DNA of 64,000 nucleotides, taken from an uncultured Lachnospiraceae bacterium. GTDB lineage: Bacteria > Bacillota > Clostridia > Lachnospirales > Lachnospiraceae. The position numbers and the translations under genes are program-made. Below, piece after piece: positions 2,752-46,684 of the stretch. The stretch is taken from the NCBI GenBank assembly GCA_947629525.1, contig CANREB010000005.1, positions 13,738 to 77,737 on the forward strand. Reading direction: 5' to 3'. How positions within the stretch are numbered: position 1 is the first letter of the stretch; each line of letters starts with the position of its first letter. The notes under the pieces were generated by a model. It did not search any database, was not told the DNA's origin, and saw nothing but the letters and a program-made list of their open reading frames with translations.

Positions 2752-2899
2752 GCCCGCACAGAGGCATACACAGCATTCAGACTTTTGAAAAGCGTCGGCA
2801 CTTAGCGAAGCAAGCCTCAAGGCGCCGCTGAGCTTAGTGTCCGCTACGCTTTTCAGAAGCGCAAGCGTGTCTGAATGCTGTGTATGCCTCTGTGCGGGC
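2752..2899. repeat. long palindromic (hairpin) element, copy 3
   Basis: Perfect 30-bp outer stem CCCGCACAGAGGCATACACAGCATTCAGAC / GTCTGAATGCTGTGTATGCCTCTGTGCGGG, with inner 10-bp stem TGAAAAGCGT / ACGCTTTTCA. Followed by a C-run tail. Confidence 0.85.
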
Positions 2900-2922
2900 G
2901 CCCCTCTCCCCTAAAAACCCCC

Positions 2923-2951
2923 TTGCTTTTCCCCCAAAAAAGTGCCATAAT
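2923..2951 (+). promoter_or_regulatory. candidate sigma-A promoter of asnA
   Basis: TTGCTT-17 nt-CATAAT with upstream TGn, 42 nt before the ATG. Confidence 0.35.
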
Positions 2952-2992
2952 CAAATTAATATAAAATAATCAACCAAAACAGGAGAACAGCC

Positions 2993-4003
2993 ATGAAAAA
3001 ATTAATCATTCCGGACGGTTACAGTTCCGCGTTAAATCTTCATGATACGCAGATAGCGATCAAGACCGTCAAGGACTTTTTTCAAAATCAGCTTGCACAG
3101 CACCTTCATCTTGAGCGCGTCTCCGCACCGCTCTTTGTAGACCCGCTTTCAGGTCTGAACGACAATCTTAACGGCGTGGAACGTCCCGTCGCTTTTGACA
3201 TAAAAGAGCAGGGCGGCAGGCAGGCAGAAGTCGTGCAGTCGCTTGCCAAGTGGAAACGTTACGCGCTTCAAAAATACGGATTTACTGTCGGCGAGGGCAT
3301 TTACACTGATATGAATGCCATAAGGCGGGATGAAGAGACTGACAATATCCACTCAATATTTGTAGATCAGTGGGATTGGGAAAAGATAATTGATAAGGAA
3401 GCGCGCAACATCGGCACTCTCAAATCCACAGTACGCGATGTATACAGATGCCTTAAAAACACGGAAAAATTTATGGCTATCCAGTACGATTACATAGAAG
3501 AGATGCTTCCTGATGATATATTCTTTGTGACCACCGCTGAGCTGGAAGATATTTTCCCCGACTATACGCCGAAAGAACGCGAATACTATATCGCCAAGGC
3601 AAAGGGCGCGGCATGTATAATGCAGATAGGCGGTGAGCTTTCAAACGGCAAGCCGCACGACGGGCGCGCACCCGACTATGACGACTGGGCGCTCAACTGT
3701 GACATAGTAGTATATTATCCGGTACTTGATATAGCTCTTGAGCTGTCATCTATGGGAATACGTGTTGACCGCGACTCTCTCCTGTCACAGCTTGACAAAG
3801 CAGGATGCCCTGAGCGTGCCAAACTTCCCTACCAGAAATCCATAATAGACGAACAGCTTCCCTACACAATAGGCGGCGGCATAGGACAGTCGCGCATATG
3901 TATGTTTTTCCTCAGGAAAGCGCATATCGGGGAAGTCCAGTCGTCAATATGGACTGATGAAGCCGTAAAAGAATGCGAGAAGCAGGGAATACAGCTTCTA
4001 TAG
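2993..4003 (+). CDS. asnA: aspartate--ammonia ligase (asparagine synthetase A)
   Basis: 336 aa. N-terminus MKKLIIPDGYSSALNLHDTQIAIKTVKDFF and overall length are typical of AsnA. SD AGGAGAA upstream. Confidence 0.9.
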   Translation: MKKLIIPDGYSSALNLHDTQIAIKTVKDFFQNQLAQHLHLERVSAPLFVDPLSGLNDNLNGVERPVAFDIKEQGGRQAEVVQSLAKWKRYALQKYGFTVGEGIYTDMNAIRRDEETDNIHSIFVDQWDWEKIIDKEARNIGTLKSTVRDVYRCLKNTEKFMAIQYDYIEEMLPDDIFFVTTAELEDIFPDYTPKEREYYIAKAKGAACIMQIGGELSNGKPHDGRAPDYDDWALNCDIVVYYPVLDIALELSSMGIRVDRDSLLSQLDKAGCPERAKLPYQKSIIDEQLPYTIGGGIGQSRICMFFLRKAHIGEVQSSIWTDEAVKECEKQGIQLL

Positions 4004-4212: not shown

Positions 4213-5142
4213 TTAACCAAGCTGTGCCGCAACTTCCGCCGCGAAATCTTCCTGCTTCTTCTCGATGCCTTCGCCTGTCTCGAAACGTACAAATCTCTTG
4301 ACGGAAAGCTTCGCGGAATTAGCCTTTGCTACACTGTCGATATACTGCTTAACAGTCTGCTTGCCGTCCTCAGCCTTGACATATATCTGCTCAACAAGGC
4401 AGATTTCTTTTAATTCCTTGTTAAGACGACCGTTTACAGCGCCGTCTATAACTTTATCGGGCTTACCTGCCATCTTAGGATCGTTCTTGATCTGCTCTGC
4501 GATTATCTCTCTCTCATGAGCCTTGTATTCTTCGGAAATCTCATCGGGGCTGACATACTTGGGGCTGAGCGCTGCAACCTGCATAGCAAGATTTACAAGA
4601 GCCTCCTTAATGTCATCATTTACTACATCCGTATCAGCCTCTACGATAACGCCGATCCTGCCGCCGCCATGTGTATAGGAAACTACACAGCCGTTAGATG
4701 CCGTAACCTTTTCAAATCTTCTGATAGTAAGATTTTCGCCGATAACAGCGATCTTATCAACTAAGGCATCCTTAACTGTCTTGGATGCGTCCTCATTCCA
4801 CTTCTCAGCAAGGAATGTATCTATATCCGTTGAAGATGTGTTAAGAGCCTGCTTAGCCACAGAAGCAACAAACTTCTGGAACTCTTCGTTCTTTGCGACA
4901 AAGTCTGTCTCTGAATTAACTTCTACAACTGCCGCTGTATTGCCCTCAACAAGCACTTTGCAAAGACCTTCTGCCGCGATCCTGCCTGCCTTCTTCTCTG
5001 CTTTAGCCTGTCCGTTCTTTCTCAAAAACTCTACAGCTTCATCCATATTTCCGTTAGTCTCATTCAGCGCTTTCTTACAGTCCATCATACCTGCGCCGGT
5101 CATTTCCCTTAACTCTTTTACCATTGCTGCTGTAATAGCCAT
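4213..5142 (-). CDS. tsf: translation elongation factor Ts
   Basis: MAITAAMVKELREMTGAGMMDCKKAL... is the canonical EF-Ts N-terminus. AGGAGG SD. Confidence 0.95.
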   Translation of the reverse strand: MAITAAMVKELREMTGAGMMDCKKALNETNGNMDEAVEFLRKNGQAKAEKKAGRIAAEGLCKVLVEGNTAAVVEVNSETDFVAKNEEFQKFVASVAKQALNTSSTDIDTFLAEKWNEDASKTVKDALVDKIAVIGENLTIRRFEKVTASNGCVVSYTHGGGRIGVIVEADTDVVNDDIKEALVNLAMQVAALSPKYVSPDEISEEYKAHEREIIAEQIKNDPKMAGKPDKVIDGAVNGRLNKELKEICLVEQIYVKAEDGKQTVKQYIDSVAKANSAKLSVKRFVRFETGEGIEKKQEDFAAEVAAQLG

Positions 5143-41896: not shown

Positions 41897-42391
41897 TTAT
41901 TGATTCATCTCAAGTCCTTTGAGTGCCATTGACTTGGACGCTTCAAAAGCCGCCTGATTTGCATCGTAGCCACGGCTTGCATCGATCATGTTAGTCATCT
42001 CGGTAATGATATTGACGTTGGGATAATGTACATATCCGTTCTCGTCGGCGTCGGGATGCTCCGGGTCATATGCGAGCGTCTCTTCCGTCCATGTGTCCTC
42101 ATACAGACCGCCTATCTTAACGCCCTGTCCCGGGCTTGAAAGCTTCGCGGAATTGAGATACCCGAGGGGTCTGCCCGAAAGGTTGCTGAACGCGGTGTCA
42201 AGCATATGCGAAAAATCCCTTGTCTTTATGTCTGATTTCTCTTGGAATGTAACGACTTTACGCACGTAGGGCGTGCCGTCCTCAGTCCTTGTGGAATGAG
42301 CGTTAGCCATATTCTGTGAGATAACGTCCATGCGGTATCTCTCAGCCGTCATGCCCGAAGAGCTGATATCAAATGAAGTAAATAATCCCAT
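41897..42391 (-). CDS. flgC: flagellar basal-body rod protein FlgC
   Basis: SSGMTAERYRMDVISQNMANAHSTRT N-terminus and SRGYDANQAAFEASKSMALKGLEM C-terminus. Confidence 0.93.
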   Translation of the reverse strand: MGLFTSFDISSSGMTAERYRMDVISQNMANAHSTRTEDGTPYVRKVVTFQEKSDIKTRDFSHMLDTAFSNLSGRPLGYLNSAKLSSPGQGVKIGGLYEDTWTEETLAYDPEHPDADENGYVHYPNVNIITEMTNMIDASRGYDANQAAFEASKSMALKGLEMNQ

Positions 42392-42406
42392 AATTCAACC
42401 TCCTGT

Positions 42407-42799
42407 TTACTGCATTACCGAACGAAGCATCGAAAAGTCCATATTCATCAGATCCATCATTCCGTTGTACTTTATCTGGTTCTTTGCCGATATTGCATTT
42501 TCTGTGTTGATGTCAACGTTATTGCCGTCATATCTGTATGAAAGTTCCGAATAGTCGATGTATGTCTGCGGCGTTATCGCGTCAAGGTCAAGATTTTTGA
42601 CTCTCGCATCGACTGTGTCTTCCGTGGCTTTCGCAAAAGCGTTTCTCAGTTCGCGTTCGAAGCGCAGATCCTTTCTTTTATACCCGGGTGTGTTTACGTT
42701 GGCGATGTTGTTGTTGATAAGTTCCTGACGCATAGCCGTGGCGTCAAGTGTCTTGCTCATAAGGTTGATGTAATCGTACACATTGGTTGCTCCTAACAT
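42407..42799 (-). CDS. flgB: flagellar basal-body rod protein FlgB
   Basis: RQELINNNIANVNTPGYKRKD rod motif. First gene of the cluster. Confidence 0.92.
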   Translation of the reverse strand: MLGATNVYDYINLMSKTLDATAMRQELINNNIANVNTPGYKRKDLRFERELRNAFAKATEDTVDARVKNLDLDAITPQTYIDYSELSYRYDGNNVDINTENAISAKNQIKYNGMMDLMNMDFSMLRSVMQ

Positions 42800-42879: not shown

Positions 42880-42907
42880 ATTATAGTTTATTTTTAGAAT
42901 ATTTCAA
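42880..42907 (-). promoter_or_regulatory. sigma-A promoter of the fla/che cluster (P-fla/che equivalent)
   Basis: Minus strand TTGAAA-16 nt-TATAAT, about 80 nt upstream of the flgB ATG. Confidence 0.55.
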
Positions 42908-42959: not shown

Positions 42960-42995
42960 AGCAAAAGACCTGCCGTATCGCGCGGCAGGTCTTTG
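42960..42995 (-). terminator. intrinsic terminator (ancestrally for codY, now ending the toxin transcript)
   Basis: 12-bp stem AAAGACCTGCCG / CGGCAGGTCTTT, followed on the minus strand by TTGCTGTTT, so that reading through from the last stem bases gives CTTTTGCTGTTT. Confidence 0.7.
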
Positions 42996-43030: not shown

Positions 43031-43056
43031 ATTTTATTTTTTCAACTGATGTTTAA
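43031..43056. repeat. 26-bp direct repeat, copy A (duplicate of the codY 3' end), right-hand boundary of the TA cassette in the transcription sense
   Basis: ATTTTATTTTTTCAACTGATGTTTAA is identical to 43759-43784. It contains the toxin stop codon. Confidence 0.9.
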
Positions 43057-43556
43057 AATTGTTTGTCTGATTTTTCCAACTCTTCGAGCAGATATTTTTT
43101 CACATCCGTTATATGTTGGCGGAAACAGTTATTTTTGGAATTTTCAACTGAAAGGATCCTGAAAAGCTTTCGCTGCAGTTCAGAAATCAAATTAGGATTT
43201 TTTATAATATAGTGCTGCCTGTCCGCACCGACATGGATATCATCTATGTATTTATCAATAATAGGTATCGCATCACTGATGAAAAAAACAGACTGCGACG
43301 TGGTTCTGCCGATATGGTAATAGCAGGAACGGATATCACGTTTTGGAAGGTTAAGATAAAAATCCAACCGCCTTTTCTGCGAAGCGTCGCGATGATTTAG
43401 TTTTCCCATTGGAATTGCCCAATAGAGCTGTTCATTTTCCGTTGATTTAACCAAGCATACAATCGGACGATGTTTTGTGTCATTCCATGTGCCGCCGACA
43501 GATTGGATCATTTTCTGAAAATCCGCCGTAGCATAGTAAAGTCCCTGTTCGATCAT
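43053..43556 (-). CDS. type III toxin-antitoxin system toxin, ToxN/AbiQ/CptN-like endoribonuclease (167 aa)
   Basis: Start at ATG 43554-43556 (MIEQGLYYATADF...). ToxN/AbiQ-like pattern HRPIVCLVKSTENEQLYWAIPMGK and FFISDAIPIIDKYI. Upstream context is tandem repeats plus a terminator. The family call is from memory. Confidence 0.65.
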   Translation of the reverse strand: MIEQGLYYATADFQKMIQSVGGTWNDTKHRPIVCLVKSTENEQLYWAIPMGKLNHRDASQKRRLDFYLNLPKRDIRSCYYHIGRTTSQSVFFISDAIPIIDKYIDDIHVGADRQHYIIKNPNLISELQRKLFRILSVENSKNNCFRQHITDVKKYLLEELEKSDKQF

Positions 43557-43577
43557 TCCAGTACCCCGCTTTATGTA

Positions 43578-43605
43578 ATACAAAACCCCCGATATACACC
43601 GGGGG
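43578..43605 (-). terminator. short GC hairpin plus T-run between the repeat array and the toxin ORF
   Basis: Minus strand CCCCCG-gtgtatat-CGGGGG followed by TTTTGTATT. Analogous to the toxI-toxN terminator. Confidence 0.55.
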
Positions 43606-43613
43606 CTGTCAGA

Positions 43614-43698
43614 CAATGTTTCTGTGCCGCACATTGTGAAGCGTACTTTTATAGGCAATGTTTCTGTGCCGTACATTGCGAAACGTTTTTGAATAAGG
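43614..43698 (-). ncRNA. candidate type III antitoxin RNA: two tandem 42/43-nt repeats
   Basis: 43614-43655 and 43656-43698 are about 80% identical. Each has an internal CAATGT...ACATTG inverted repeat. They lie immediately downstream of a consensus promoter. Confidence 0.6.
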
Positions 43699-43719
43699 TT
43701 TGAGCTTCCGCTCATTTTT

Positions 43720-43748
43720 ATTATACTCAAAATATACTAAAATAGCAA
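43720..43748 (-). promoter_or_regulatory. sigma-A promoter of the TA cassette
   Basis: Minus strand TTGCTA-17 nt-TATAAT, with the -10 element ending about 20 nt before the first repeat. Confidence 0.55.
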
Positions 43749-43758
43749 CCCGAATTTG

Positions 43759-43784
43759 ATTTTATTTTTTCAACTGATGTTTAA
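43759..43784. repeat. 26-bp direct repeat, copy B (authentic codY 3' end)
   Basis: Identical to 43031-43056. Encodes the last 7 codons (KHQLKK plus stop region) of codY. Confidence 0.9.
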
Positions 43785-44547
43785 GGTTTTCGACTTCTTC
43801 GAATACTACATCGTTGAGTACTTTGATGTATGTGCCTTTCATGCCGGATGAGCGCGATTCGATGACGCCCGCGCTCTCGAACTTGCGCAGCGCGTTGACT
43901 ATGACGCTCCTTGTGATGCCTACTCTGTCCGCTATCTTGCTTGCGACAATTATGCCTTCCGTGCCGTTTAACTCGTCAAATATGTGCGTGATCGCTTCCA
44001 TCTCGGAAAATGACAGCGTTGAGATAGCCGATTTGACGACTGACACCTTGCGGCTCTCCTCCGCGCTCTCCTCGCTTACGGCGCGCAGCATTTCAAGCCC
44101 CACGACCGTAACGCCGTATTCGCAGAGGATGATATCGTCAATGTCGTACTGCTCTCCGCACTTGTATATAAACAGCGTGCCGAGGCGTTCGCCCGCTATC
44201 TCTATGGGCGTTATCACCGCTTGGAATTTGCGTATGTCGGGACTTTCAAAACCGAGCGTTTCAAGATTGACATTCTCCTTGGTAGACAGCACGCCGAGAA
44301 GACGCTCATTGAGCATCGGGTCTATGAAGCCGCCTACATTGCCGTCAACAAGCTCTTTCAGTTCCTCCACTCCGTCGCAATGGCCTACTCCGAGCACTTT
44401 GCCTTTTCTGCTTATCACCAGTACGTTTGAGTTGACTATCTCACGTATCACGGTGCAGATGTCGTTGAATACTACTTTACTTGAATTATTGTTGTGCAAA
44501 AGCTTACCGATTTTTCTCGTTTTGTCCAATAACTGTACGCTGCTCAT
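43762..44547 (-). CDS. codY: GTP/BCAA-sensing global transcriptional repressor CodY
   Basis: 261 aa with a GAF-like N-terminus and the wHTH ASKIADRVGITRSVIVNALRKFESAGVIESRS. Confidence 0.95.
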   Translation of the reverse strand: MSSVQLLDKTRKIGKLLHNNNSSKVVFNDICTVIREIVNSNVLVISRKGKVLGVGHCDGVEELKELVDGNVGGFIDPMLNERLLGVLSTKENVNLETLGFESPDIRKFQAVITPIEIAGERLGTLFIYKCGEQYDIDDIILCEYGVTVVGLEMLRAVSEESAEESRKVSVVKSAISTLSFSEMEAITHIFDELNGTEGIIVASKIADRVGITRSVIVNALRKFESAGVIESRSSGMKGTYIKVLNDVVFEEVENLKHQLKK

Positions 44548-44632: not shown

Positions 44633-46684
44633 TCAAGCTTTCTGAAAATAATCCGATACTACATTGCCGCACTGTTCATTTGCGCATACAAGTTTATTGC
44701 CTTTTATAAGCATTATGCCGCCGCACTTGCTGCATTTTTCTTTTGCGGGGCGCTGCCATACCATGAAATCGCACTCGGGTATCGCCTCGCAGCCGTAATA
44801 CTTCCTTCCTTTTTTGGTCTTGCGTATCACTATCTCTTTGCCGCACTTGGGGCATGTAACTCCAATCTTCTCATAATATGTCTTTGTGTTGCGGCACTCG
44901 GGAAATCCGGGACATGCGAGGAACTTGCCGTGAGGTCCGTATTTTACCACCATATTCCTGCCGCACATCTCGCATACTTCGTCCGACACTTCATCGGCTA
45001 TCTCAACCTGTTCAAGTTCTTTCTCGGCGCGTTTTACCGCCTCTTCAAGATCGGGGTAAAAATTGGAAACTACGGTCTTCCAGTTTATCGTGCCTTCTTC
45101 CACTTTATCGAGCAACGCTTCAAGATTTGCCGTAAAGTTCACGTCAACTATCGACGGAAAAGCGTCTTTCATCATATTGTTGACTACCTCGCCAAGCTCC
45201 GATACATAAAGGTTTTTGTCCTCTTTTACCACATAGCGTCTTGCAATGATCGTGGTTATCGTGGGCGCATAGGTACTTGGTCTGCCTATTCCCAGTTCTT
45301 CAAGCGCCCTGACAAGCGACGCCTCGGTGTAGTGTGCGGGCGGCTGCGTAAAGTGCTGTTTTGGCTCTATATTGTCAAGCGTAAGTTTTGTGTCTTTGGT
45401 GATGTCTTTCACTACGGTATTTGCTTCGTTCTTATCGTCGTCATCGTCTTTATATACGCTCATAAATCCGTCGAATACGACTTTTGAAGCGGCAACTGTA
45501 AAGCGATGCCCGCCTGCGTCTATTTTAATCGATGTAGTCTCATATTGGGCGCTTGTCATCCTGCTTGCCGTAAAGCGCTTCCAGATAAGCTGATACAGCC
45601 TGAACTGGTCACGTACAAGCGACGTTTTCATCATCGAGGGGGTATTGCCGATATCAGTAGGTCTTATCGCCTCATGCGCATCCTGTATCTTCTGCTCCTT
45701 TTTCTTTTCGTTCACTTCCAGAGCCGCGTATTTCTCACCGTAATTTTCTGTTATATATTTAAACGACATCTGTGCCGCCTCGTCCGAAACTCTTGTAGAG
45801 TCAGTTCTCAGATATGTTATTATACCGCTCTCATAAAGCTGCTGCGCAAGGCTCATGGTCTTTTGCGTTGAAAAATTCAACTGCTTGCTTGCCTCCTGCT
45901 GAAGCGTTGATGTCGTAAACGGAAGCGGCGCTTTTTTTATGCGCTCGCCTTTTTTTATTTCCGATACTTTAAATGAGGCGTTTTCTATGTCCTTAAGCAC
46001 TTTGTCCATCTGTTCTTTTGATGTTATATCTGTCTTTTTGTCTGATGAACCGTAATATTTTGCCACAAGCGGCTTTTTCTCTCCCTTTATCTTGAGAAAA
46101 GCGTCAAGCGTCCAGTATTCCTCGGGGATAAAGGCATTTATCTCTTCTTCCCTGTCGCATATGATGCGCAGCGCCACTGACTGCACGCGTCCTGCGCTCA
46201 GCCCTCTTTTTATCTTTGTCCACAAAAGCGGCGAAATGCGGTAGCCGACCATCCTGTCAAGCATACGCCTTGCCTGCTGCGCGTCCACAAGGCTCATATC
46301 GATTTCTCTTGGATTTTTAAGCGACTCCTTTACGGCGTTTTTTGTGATTTCGTTAAAGGTTATCCTGTATACTTTTTTGTCCGCAAGCTTAAGCGCTTCG
46401 TACAGATGCCATGAAATCGCCTCGCCCTCGCGGTCAGGGTCGGTCGCAAGATATATTTTTTCCGCTTTTTTTACTTCTTTTCTTAGTTTGGCAAGGATAT
46501 CGCCCTTGCCGCGTATCGTTATATATTTAGGTTCATAATCATTGTCAGCGTCAAATCCGAGCTGGCTCTTTGGCATATCGCGGACATGTCCGTTGCTCGC
46601 GATGACTTCATAATTTGTTCCGAGAAATTTTTTAATAGTCTTTACCTTTGCAGGCGACTCAACTATCACTAAATATTTTGCCAT
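44633..46684 (-). CDS. topA: DNA topoisomerase I
   Basis: MAKYLVIVESPAKVKTIKKFLG Toprim N-terminus and C-terminal Cys4 zinc ribbons (CEMCGRNM...CPGFPEC, CPKCGKE). Confidence 0.95.
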   Translation of the reverse strand: MAKYLVIVESPAKVKTIKKFLGTNYEVIASNGHVRDMPKSQLGFDADNDYEPKYITIRGKGDILAKLRKEVKKAEKIYLATDPDREGEAISWHLYEALKLADKKVYRITFNEITKNAVKESLKNPREIDMSLVDAQQARRMLDRMVGYRISPLLWTKIKRGLSAGRVQSVALRIICDREEEINAFIPEEYWTLDAFLKIKGEKKPLVAKYYGSSDKKTDITSKEQMDKVLKDIENASFKVSEIKKGERIKKAPLPFTTSTLQQEASKQLNFSTQKTMSLAQQLYESGIITYLRTDSTRVSDEAAQMSFKYITENYGEKYAALEVNEKKKEQKIQDAHEAIRPTDIGNTPSMMKTSLVRDQFRLYQLIWKRFTASRMTSAQYETTSIKIDAGGHRFTVAASKVVFDGFMSVYKDDDDDKNEANTVVKDITKDTKLTLDNIEPKQHFTQPPAHYTEASLVRALEELGIGRPSTYAPTITTIIARRYVVKEDKNLYVSELGEVVNNMMKDAFPSIVDVNFTANLEALLDKVEEGTINWKTVVSNFYPDLEEAVKRAEKELEQVEIADEVSDEVCEMCGRNMVVKYGPHGKFLACPGFPECRNTKTYYEKIGVTCPKCGKEIVIRKTKKGRKYYGCEAIPECDFMVWQRPAKEKCSKCGGIMLIKGNKLVCANEQCGNVVSDYFQKA

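Follow-up and report, generated by a model that had tools for sequence, protein, structure and literature searches.

How does a small toxin-antitoxin (TA) cassette that carries no mobility gene come to lie between two conserved chromosomal genes? The movement of such TA and defense cassettes is poorly understood. The question is raised by the codY-flgB junction of an uncultured Lachnospiraceae bacterium, in a stretch of 64,000 nucleotides (nt) of contig CANREB010000005.1 that is referred to here as the window. On its minus strand the genes follow each other in the order topA, codY, a 168-amino-acid (aa) open reading frame (ORF), flgB, and flgC, and a perfect 26-nt copy of the codY 3' end is found on either side of the 168-aa ORF. 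The 728 bp by which the two copies are offset are best read as a CptIN-like type III TA cassette plus one extra 26-nt tail of the codY region, acquired horizontally. How the cassette entered is a more delicate matter, for which a single crossover anchored in short homology is tentatively favored below.

Repeat pair and insertion at the codY-flgB junction

The 26-mer ATTTTATTTTTTCAACTGATGTTTAA occurs exactly twice in the 64-kb window, at positions 43031-43056 (copy A) and 43759-43784 (copy B) of the plus strand, 728 bp apart, in agreement with the initial annotation of a perfect duplication around the TA unit. The window holds no third match even when up to three mismatches are allowed, 100 dinucleotide-preserving shuffles yielded no 26-mer match, and the chance expectation for an exact 26-mer pair in 64 kb is about 5e-7 pairs. 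At both copies the identity ends sharply, with differing outer and inner bases and no extension. The 26-mer is not a dispersed repeat, since it has no exact match in three large public collections (metagenome_contigs, genome_contigs, and viral_contigs) and no match with up to five mismatches in 120 related loci.

Copy B is the true end of codY, as was proposed initially. Read on the minus strand (TT AAA CAT CAG TTG AAA AAA TAA AAT), it holds the last codons, KHQLKK, and the stop, and the C terminus of the protein (LKHQLKK) aligns up to the stop with the LKRQLNK of the relatives L001 to L003. Copy A is noncoding except that it supplies the stop codon of the 168-aa ORF, at 43053-43055. The preceding bases are ...GAC AAA CAA TT, so that the ORF ends in TTT TAA and its last sense codon, TTT, spans the junction between the cassette and copy A. 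Copy A is followed by a terminator and by the flgB promoter, the arrangement that had been interpreted as the ancestral continuation of codY; without the 728 bp, this terminator would directly follow codY. The promoter block is kept in L001 and L002 (CTTGAAATATTCTGAAAATAAACTATAAT).

The junction was compared with the 80 closest codY loci, taken from one-genome-per-species contigs of Lachnospiraceae (CodY 77-93% identical; many labeled Acetatifactor). None of these 80 loci contains a homologue of the toxin. In 52 of them flgB adjoins codY, with a spacer of 96-429 nt, whereas the spacer of the window measures 962 nt, which is 234 nt plus the 728 nt in question. Once the 728 nt are subtracted, the terminator lies 39 nt past the codY stop, against a median of 36 nt in the 23 relatives where a crude terminator finder detected a hairpin. 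Of the expected empty site, a single 26-mer followed by the terminator, the architecture is seen in the relatives. Their codY tail has diverged, that of the nearest genomes (CodY 90-93% identical in aa sequence) reads …CGCCAGCTGAATAAGTAA, and the empty site is therefore comparable in its architecture and was not obtained base for base. Of the two findings named initially as contrary to an insertion, a duplicated arrangement shared by all relatives and a 26-mer common at unrelated places, neither was made.

The limits of the inserted DNA can be placed from the cassette side as well. All of the DNA between the repeats has homology to cassettes found elsewhere, and at the nucleotide level the homology to the related cassettes L223 and L228 amounts to 82% over 43696-43065. 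A conserved promoter block, GTTGCTAT...TTTTGAGTATAAT, recognized by eye and common to L223 and L228, starts about 10 nt past copy B, and the likeness to the toxin tail of L228 (GACAAACAATT) stops at the base before copy A. The 728 bp are thus a discrete insertion, both cassette limits of which coincide with the repeat edges.

Look-ups by exact protein sequence with CodY, FlgB, and a 220-aa ORF, the gene caller's version of the toxin ORF, retrieved about 12 contigs of the same species (ENA ERZ272490xx-96xx, from one study, and Logan SRR29273032) that are 99.3-100% identical to the window; the 168-aa version is not on record with that start codon. In every one of these contigs the cassette occupies the identical site, flanked by both 26-mers, and no empty allele was found among them. 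The strains differ by single-nucleotide polymorphisms (SNPs) in codY and flgB and by a single SNP in the cassette. Since all are filled while differing in this way, the insertion is older than the divergence of the sampled strains, and it looks fixed. In one contig of the species, L128, 10 SNPs are clustered in flgB (window 42353-42684) next to a cassette and 26-mers identical to those of the window, which looks like a recombination patch beside the insertion.

The inserted cassette

The DNA between the copies is fully taken up by a promoter, antitoxin repeats, a terminator, and the toxin ORF (Table 1). It contains no recombinase or transposase, in line with what the initial annotation had noted, and no inverted repeat linking the two cassette ends was found. 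The -35/-10 block of its promoter is also present in L223 and L228.

Table 1. Features of the codY-flgB region, in the direction of transcription (window positions).
Feature	Position	Strand	Description
topA	44633-46684	-	
codY	43762-44547	-	261 aa; Pfam PF06018 (CodY) 2.9e-34, PF08222 (HTH_CodY) 7.1e-30
Repeat copy B	43759-43784	-	True codY 3' end: last 6 codons and part of the 7th, stop, 3 nt past the stop; exact 26-mer
Inserted DNA proper	43057-43758	-	702 bp; predicted complete type III TA cassette
Cassette promoter	43720-43748	-	TTGCTA - 17 nt - TATAAT; consensus scan 10/12 matches
Antitoxin RNA gene (predicted)	43611-43694	-	Two tandem 42-nt repeats, 81% identity
Cassette internal terminator	43584-43607	-	Hairpin of 10 pairs (6 G-C) and T-run, between antitoxin repeats and toxin
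Toxin gene (predicted)	43053-43559	-	168 aa; distant homologue of the CptN endoribonuclease family
Repeat copy A	43031-43056	-	Displaced or duplicated codY tail
Intrinsic terminator after copy A	42964-42994	-	G+C-rich hairpin of 12-13 pairs and T-run
flgB operon promoter	42880-42907	-	TTGAAA - 16 nt - TATAAT; near consensus, 11/12 matches
flgB	42407-42799	-	Pfam Flg_bb_rod; first flagellar operon gene, downstream of the insertion
flgC	41897-42391	-	

The toxin ORF has no match in Pfam or PADLOC. Compared with the CptN toxin of Eubacterium rectale (PDB 4RMO), the single sequence gives an E value of 0.003, and a profile of 12 family members gives 9e-17 over 138 of 161 positions. The NCBIfam model NF047359 (CptIN) matches with an E value of 1e-12 and 48 bits, which lies under its 90-bit equivalog cutoff. 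These comparisons point to a distant homologue of the CptIN family and not to an equivalog. The published CptIN system (Blower et al. 2012, PMC3401426; Rao et al. 2015, PMC4627078) consists of two 45-nt repeats, a terminator, and a 155-aa toxin (PMC4627078). The window cassette resembles it in having a single promoter, two tandem repeats directly upstream of a CptN-like toxin, and a terminator between them, at the position expected from the published type III layout (PMC4627078), as well as in its host, a member of the gut Clostridia. It differs in the length of the repeats (42 nt) and of the toxin (168 aa), in the distance of the homology, and in that its putative antitoxin matches an RNA family filed under another function. 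Its TA activity, in which the RNA repeats would neutralize the toxin and the toxin would cleave the repeat precursor, is predicted.

The RNA family in question is Rfam RF02920, named "Fusobacteriales-1," which matches the minus strand at 43613-43739 with 68.5 bits (gathering score, 52.1). Among 15 other cassettes scanned, 11 have the same family immediately ahead of the toxin, with 59-128 bits; its positions include 2831-2943 in L278, 2811-2921 in L304, 2835-2954 in L309, and 3826-3945 in L090. The motif name has no mention in the searchable literature. RF02920, which is filed in Rfam as cis-regulatory, appears to be the antitoxin RNA of this CptN-like toxin family and not a cis-regulator. The closest relatives of the window cassette, L223 (3828-3945) and L228 (3772-3889), have three antitoxin repeats, of which the first is degenerate, whereas the window has two; the window cassette appears to have lost one 42-nt unit.

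The insertion has cut the global regulator gene codY off from its own terminator. Because of this separation, transcription of codY should now continue across the cassette promoter and the antitoxin repeats as far as the internal terminator, and the supply of antitoxin could thus be tied to the expression of codY. In addition, the A-rich codY tail occupies the place of the A-tract that is found upstream of the -35 box in the relatives.

Flanking repeats across the cassette family

Related cassettes are found in many gut Clostridia, on contigs labeled Treponema, Fusobacterium, and Phascolarctobacterium, and in termite-gut metagenomes. Relatives are also carried by predicted viral contigs of 58-86 kb, by 38-kb phage-plasmids of Clostridium perfringens, by 197-kb plasmids of Clostridium botulinum, and by one phage-plasmid of Clostridioides difficile. 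The relationship to those on Clostridium plasmids and phage-plasmids is seen at the protein level, and the cassette has no nucleotide match in the "phages" collection. Outside the species of the window the closest toxins are 86-87% identical and stand in unrelated contexts.

The family was scanned for flanking duplications by local alignment of the region from -700 to -130 relative to the toxin start with the region from -40 to +500 relative to its stop. Among the distinct cassettes with both flanks available, 12 of 103, or about 1 in 9, are flanked by direct repeats that score at least 17. When the same geometry was placed at random in real genomic DNA, this score was attained in 1 of 468 cases (Fisher p=8e-9), and scrambled locus pairs never scored above 15 in 640 trials. 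The repeats range from 22 to 126 nt with no fixed length, and they always consist of local target sequence. Inverted ends or common terminal motifs were not found, and the cassette ends of the window, L196, and L091 share no motif.

The duplicated segments fall into several classes. In the first, to which the window belongs with its 26 nt of codY, the repeat copies the 3' end of an upstream gene that is transcribed in the same direction, reaching as far as the stop codon or slightly beyond it. At L196 it comprises 30 perfect nt of a nikA/mobC-like gene, with the cassette situated inside the stop codon and a toxin 36% identical to that of the window. At L237 it comprises 75 nt of a ROK regulator gene and at L201 the end of an HlyD-family gene, while L234 and L239 carry a C-terminal fragment of SpoIVB (126 and 24 nt, respectively). 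The second class consists of terminator hairpins after the upstream gene, namely, L091 (22 nt), L304 (28 nt), L278 (76 nt), and L238 (22 nt). The remaining classes are represented by a tRNA 3' fragment of at least 48 nt in L110, by 60 nt inside an rve-type transposase gene in L090, and by a terminator-plus-promoter module common to two different tandem cassettes in L235. The cassette ends are likewise variable. On the left, the cassettes begin at points between the -35 box itself and about 45 nt ahead of it. On the right, the window and L201 cassettes end inside the C-terminal tail of the toxin, those of the L081 group end just after the stop, and that of L090 ends 144 nt past the toxin, so that, by comparison with L089, a piece of a former neighbor gene is included.

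The two copies at L237 are the most informative. They differ at 7 positions, and all seven differences are synonymous, including TAA versus TAG at the stop. For this sequence 20% of random changes would be silent, which gives a probability of about 1e-5 for the all-silent pattern. Because a decaying noncoding remnant cannot give a silent-only pattern, the copies are alleles that diverged while both were coding, one of which came with the cassette from another lineage. The copies of L234, with 5 silent differences and 2 replacements, show the same tendency and are likewise read as alleles from different lineages. A comparison of filled and empty sites at L237 found no relative of the ROK gene above 53% identity.

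Several of these loci have further features of their own. In L110 (identical with L241), the tRNA 3'-end fragments, at 3538-3585 and 4739-4786, are identical at 46 of 48 nt and enclose a 1.15-kb islet that contains only the TA cassette. ARAGORN gives no complete tRNA in this locus, and the contig ends within the second copy. GTTGCCA/TGGCAAC motifs that resemble arm-type recombinase sites are repeated on both inner sides, and the islet may be an integrase-dependent mini-element. In L235 the repeated module is 81 nt long (2730-2810 and 3568-3648; about 93% identity) and belongs to tandem type III TA cassettes, the first CptN-like and the second with an array of three repeats of about 38 nt of another type, which suggests that the promoter is reused as a module between antitoxin families. 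L304 has a "skipping-rope" small RNA motif (RF02924, 55 bits) at 3481-3558, between the toxin and the downstream repeat copy, and L090 has a match to group II intron domains D1-D4 (RF02001, 36 bits) on the minus strand at 4814-4951, beside the split transposase gene. L278 and L281, from Fusobacterium, contain tandem or partial cassette copies and constitute a complex locus.

A different mode of exchange is seen in the 35-39-kb phage-plasmids of C. perfringens, in which a hotspot for cargo lies immediately ahead of terS, the gene of the small terminase subunit (L308, that is, pCPC216_3, 2755-3683, compared with L310, L311, and L312). The hotspot is filled by a CptN-like cassette, by a ToxN/AbiQ type III TA system with a SEFIR-domain gene, or by a PemK/MazF type II TA system. 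The CptN-like and ToxN/AbiQ cassettes have 51 nt in common over the end of the toxin gene and the terminator, with 96% identity. Here cargo is swapped between conserved flanks without a duplication being left behind. The window cassette is similar to such phage "morons" and hotspot cargo in being a self-contained promoter-gene-terminator unit between conserved genes; in contrast to cargo that is exchanged by homologous recombination in shared flanks without duplication, it is chromosomal and scarred.

Routes of entry

The 26-nt duplication is tentatively read as the scar of a homology-anchored single crossover (a Campbell-type, or insertion-duplication, event) and not as the target-site duplication of a transposase. 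The incoming DNA would have been a circularized fragment made up of the cassette and a short stretch of codY tail, with the circle joint ...CAGACAAACAATT-[26-mer]-CAAATTCGGGTTGC..., and the empty target would have read ...GAAAACCTTAAACATCAGTTGAAAAAATAAAAT|TTAAAAAAATTGTAAAAAT.... Recombination inside the 26-nt segment would place the cassette behind an intact codY and leave the second tail copy downstream, ahead of the old codY terminator. In this model the joint between the truncated 3' end of the toxin gene and the 26-mer corresponds to the circularization joint of the fragment, which is why the toxin would borrow its stop codon from the codY tail. The cassette would then be retained by addiction, as its loss through recombination between the repeats would free a stable toxin from a labile RNA antitoxin.

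At the locus itself, the discreteness of the insertion and the fit of the cassette limits to the repeat edges speak for this reading. The evidence otherwise comes largely from the family, in which flanking repeats recur and consist of gene 3' ends, terminators, or a tRNA end, and in which the coding divergence of the copies in L237 and L234 fits recombination through a homologous segment brought by the incoming DNA. Repeat lengths of 22-126 nt, together with the lack of inverted ends and terminal motifs, argue for a homologous segment of arbitrary length and not for the fixed stagger of a transpososome, and the imprecise right end of the cassettes is as expected from an arbitrary fragment end. 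A transposon with a fixed stagger is rejected because of the spread of lengths, the missing inverted ends, and the allelic copies. The same observations, with the diverged alleles of L237 and L234, speak for the initial view that an ordinary target-site duplication would be shorter than 26 bp and that an att-type or homology-mediated capture is the closer match. We infer that the window took the same route as the loci with longer repeats.

There is precedent for such events. In Escherichia coli conjugation, single crossovers with a circularized molecule left inserts flanked by 109-950-bp duplications of the homologous segment, whereas the classical events with one-sided homology consist of an insertion plus a deletion (PMC3240628). 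The window shares with these Campbell-type integrations the direct duplication of a homologous segment of arbitrary length and the lack of a dedicated recombinase. In contrast to them, its repeat is only 26 bp long, at the limit of efficient homologous recombination, and neither a circular intermediate nor a donor was observed. A second parallel is offered by type VI secretion system effector-immunity loci and by the orphan arrays of Rhs and contact-dependent growth inhibition systems, where resident 3' ends are displaced by incoming modules anchored in the conserved upstream gene (PMC5361080). There, too, a conserved gene end arrives with its cargo, the resident end is pushed downstream as an orphan, and the alleles are diverged as in L237 and L234. 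The cargo of those arrays, however, is the variable toxic C terminus of the same gene with its immunity gene, whereas the cargo of the window is autonomous, with its own promoter, and its duplicated segment is much shorter.

Several points weigh against a single crossover. A length of 26 nt lies at the lower limit for RecA-type homologous recombination. The window copies are identical, so that nothing at the locus marks one of them as foreign, and the sliding identity profile of codY is flat, with no donor tract, in a comparison for which the relatives (72-83% nt identity) are too distant to have power. Outside the species of the window, codY and the toxin do not occur together in any of about 215 other toxin loci, and thus no donor was found. 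In the 80 relatives, no repeated codY tail turned up within 4 kb, and the tail does not serve as an insertion site there. Moreover, the model leaves the first association of the cassette with a codY tail unexplained, and the short repeats that are perfect or nearly so (22, 26, 28, and 30 nt) could be a class separate from the long diverged ones.

The strongest competing explanation is somewhat unlikely. Here the cassette would have been inserted illegitimately at a double-strand break with staggered ends. The codY tail would be opened by two nicks, one in each strand and about 26 nt apart, a linear cassette would be ligated in, and gap filling would duplicate the 26 nt. Both copies would then derive from the target, and the long diverged repeats seen elsewhere would have arisen when units of this kind were later passed on by homologous transfer. 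The perfect repeats of the window, L196 (30 nt), and L091 (22 nt) are in keeping with this, as are the coincidence of repeat edges and cassette edges (the homology of L091 to L169 begins at the first base past the repeat), the lack of convincing junction microhomology, and the fact that no codY-adjacent cassette donor is on record. It implicates no known enzyme, however, and neither inverted ends nor a transposase is present; the perfect cases already vary from 22 to 30 nt and the whole set reaches 126 nt; and a staggered break alone does not account for the synonymous-only divergence of L237. It is a serious rival for the short perfect repeats of 22-30 nt, and it could even represent the opening stage of the same life cycle.

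A duplicated gene or tRNA 3' end is the classic signature of an integrase. It is conceivable, if improbable, that a tyrosine or serine recombinase supplied in trans acted on a mini-element resembling a cis-mobilizable element (CIME), in which case the 26-mers would be the attL and attR cores and the element would have brought a replacement codY 3' end. Like integrase islands and CIMEs in the 3' ends of tRNA or protein genes, the window has direct repeats of a gene end and keeps the gene intact; L110 resembles such elements in its tRNA fragments and arm-like motifs, and the allelic copies of L237 would fit a gene end borne by the element. Unlike in those islands, no recombinase is encoded in or beside the cassette, and no core is conserved among related cassettes, which carry quite different repeats and all lack the 26-mer. 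Furthermore, the 10 nt between the repeat and the -35 box of the window are too little for arm sites. The imprecise cassette ends, which imply no fixed attP, the differing repeats on related cassettes, and the lack of site reuse in the 80 relatives make this explanation less likely.

Still less probable is that the cassette is the last module of a larger prophage or island whose integrase took it into the codY 3' end and which later lost everything but the addictive TA unit through deletion. Family members do occur on phage-plasmids, plasmids, and predicted viral contigs, and TA modules resist loss. In the window, however, only 10 nt of the remnant precede the -35 box and none follow the toxin, with no pseudogene fragments, and equally tight trimming is found independently in L196 and L091, which neutral decay would not yield. 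Such decay is unlikely because three independent loci would have been trimmed to within 0-60 nt of the functional cassette. Finally, the idea that the two 26-mers are no insertion scar and match each other by chance or through selection for a function, such as that of a common regulatory site, is effectively refuted by the shuffles and the expected number of pairs, by the coding nature of the copy B sequence, and by relatives that lack the intervening DNA.

Beyond the single event, the homology-anchored crossover can be extended to a speculative and rather doubtful proposal for the family: CptIN-like cassettes would be recombinase-free mini mobile elements whose only "attachment site" is a portable 3' end of a host gene, or a terminator or tRNA end. 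They would excise as a circle by recombination between the repeats and reenter the same gene end across strains or species through host or phage recombination, with their addictiveness guarding against loss. The window would be a young and perfect codY example.

The window has one other repeat pair of note, at 1042-1199 and 2748-2905. These are two 95%-identical copies of a long palindrome of about 158 nt (arms, CAGAGGCATACACAGCATTCAGAC and GTCTGAATGCTGTGTATGCCTCTG) that bracket a minus-strand ORF at 1279-2457, encoding a 392-aa YhgA/Rpn-like "putative transposase" (Pfam PF04754, E=3.5e-7) with a 12-aa tandem repeat, (GIKQGIEEGKLQ)n, at its C terminus. A tandem duplication of 95-98 nt lies at 2376-2568, and asnA follows at 2993-4003. 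This pair (D2) was considered as a second repeat-bounded insertion and rejected, as each copy is a 158-nt palindromic element and not a duplicated target.

The searchable literature on type III TA systems reports horizontal transfer, gives no mechanism for it, and does not discuss flanking repeats. Against this background, duplications of gene ends across a family, with allelic copies, appear to be new for type III systems. The window locus itself is a new distant member of a known TA family and, on the favored reading, the product of an ordinary kind of recombination event, with an unusually clean scar; it offers a clear example, with insert limits known to the single base, a target open to reconstruction, and both scar copies preserved. 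For annotation, it means that codY transcripts should be expected to extend into antitoxin repeats and that RF02920 is apparently an antitoxin. For the family, it offers a testable model in which small TA cassettes would enter and leave through homology-anchored, repeat-mediated recombination and would be stabilized by addiction.

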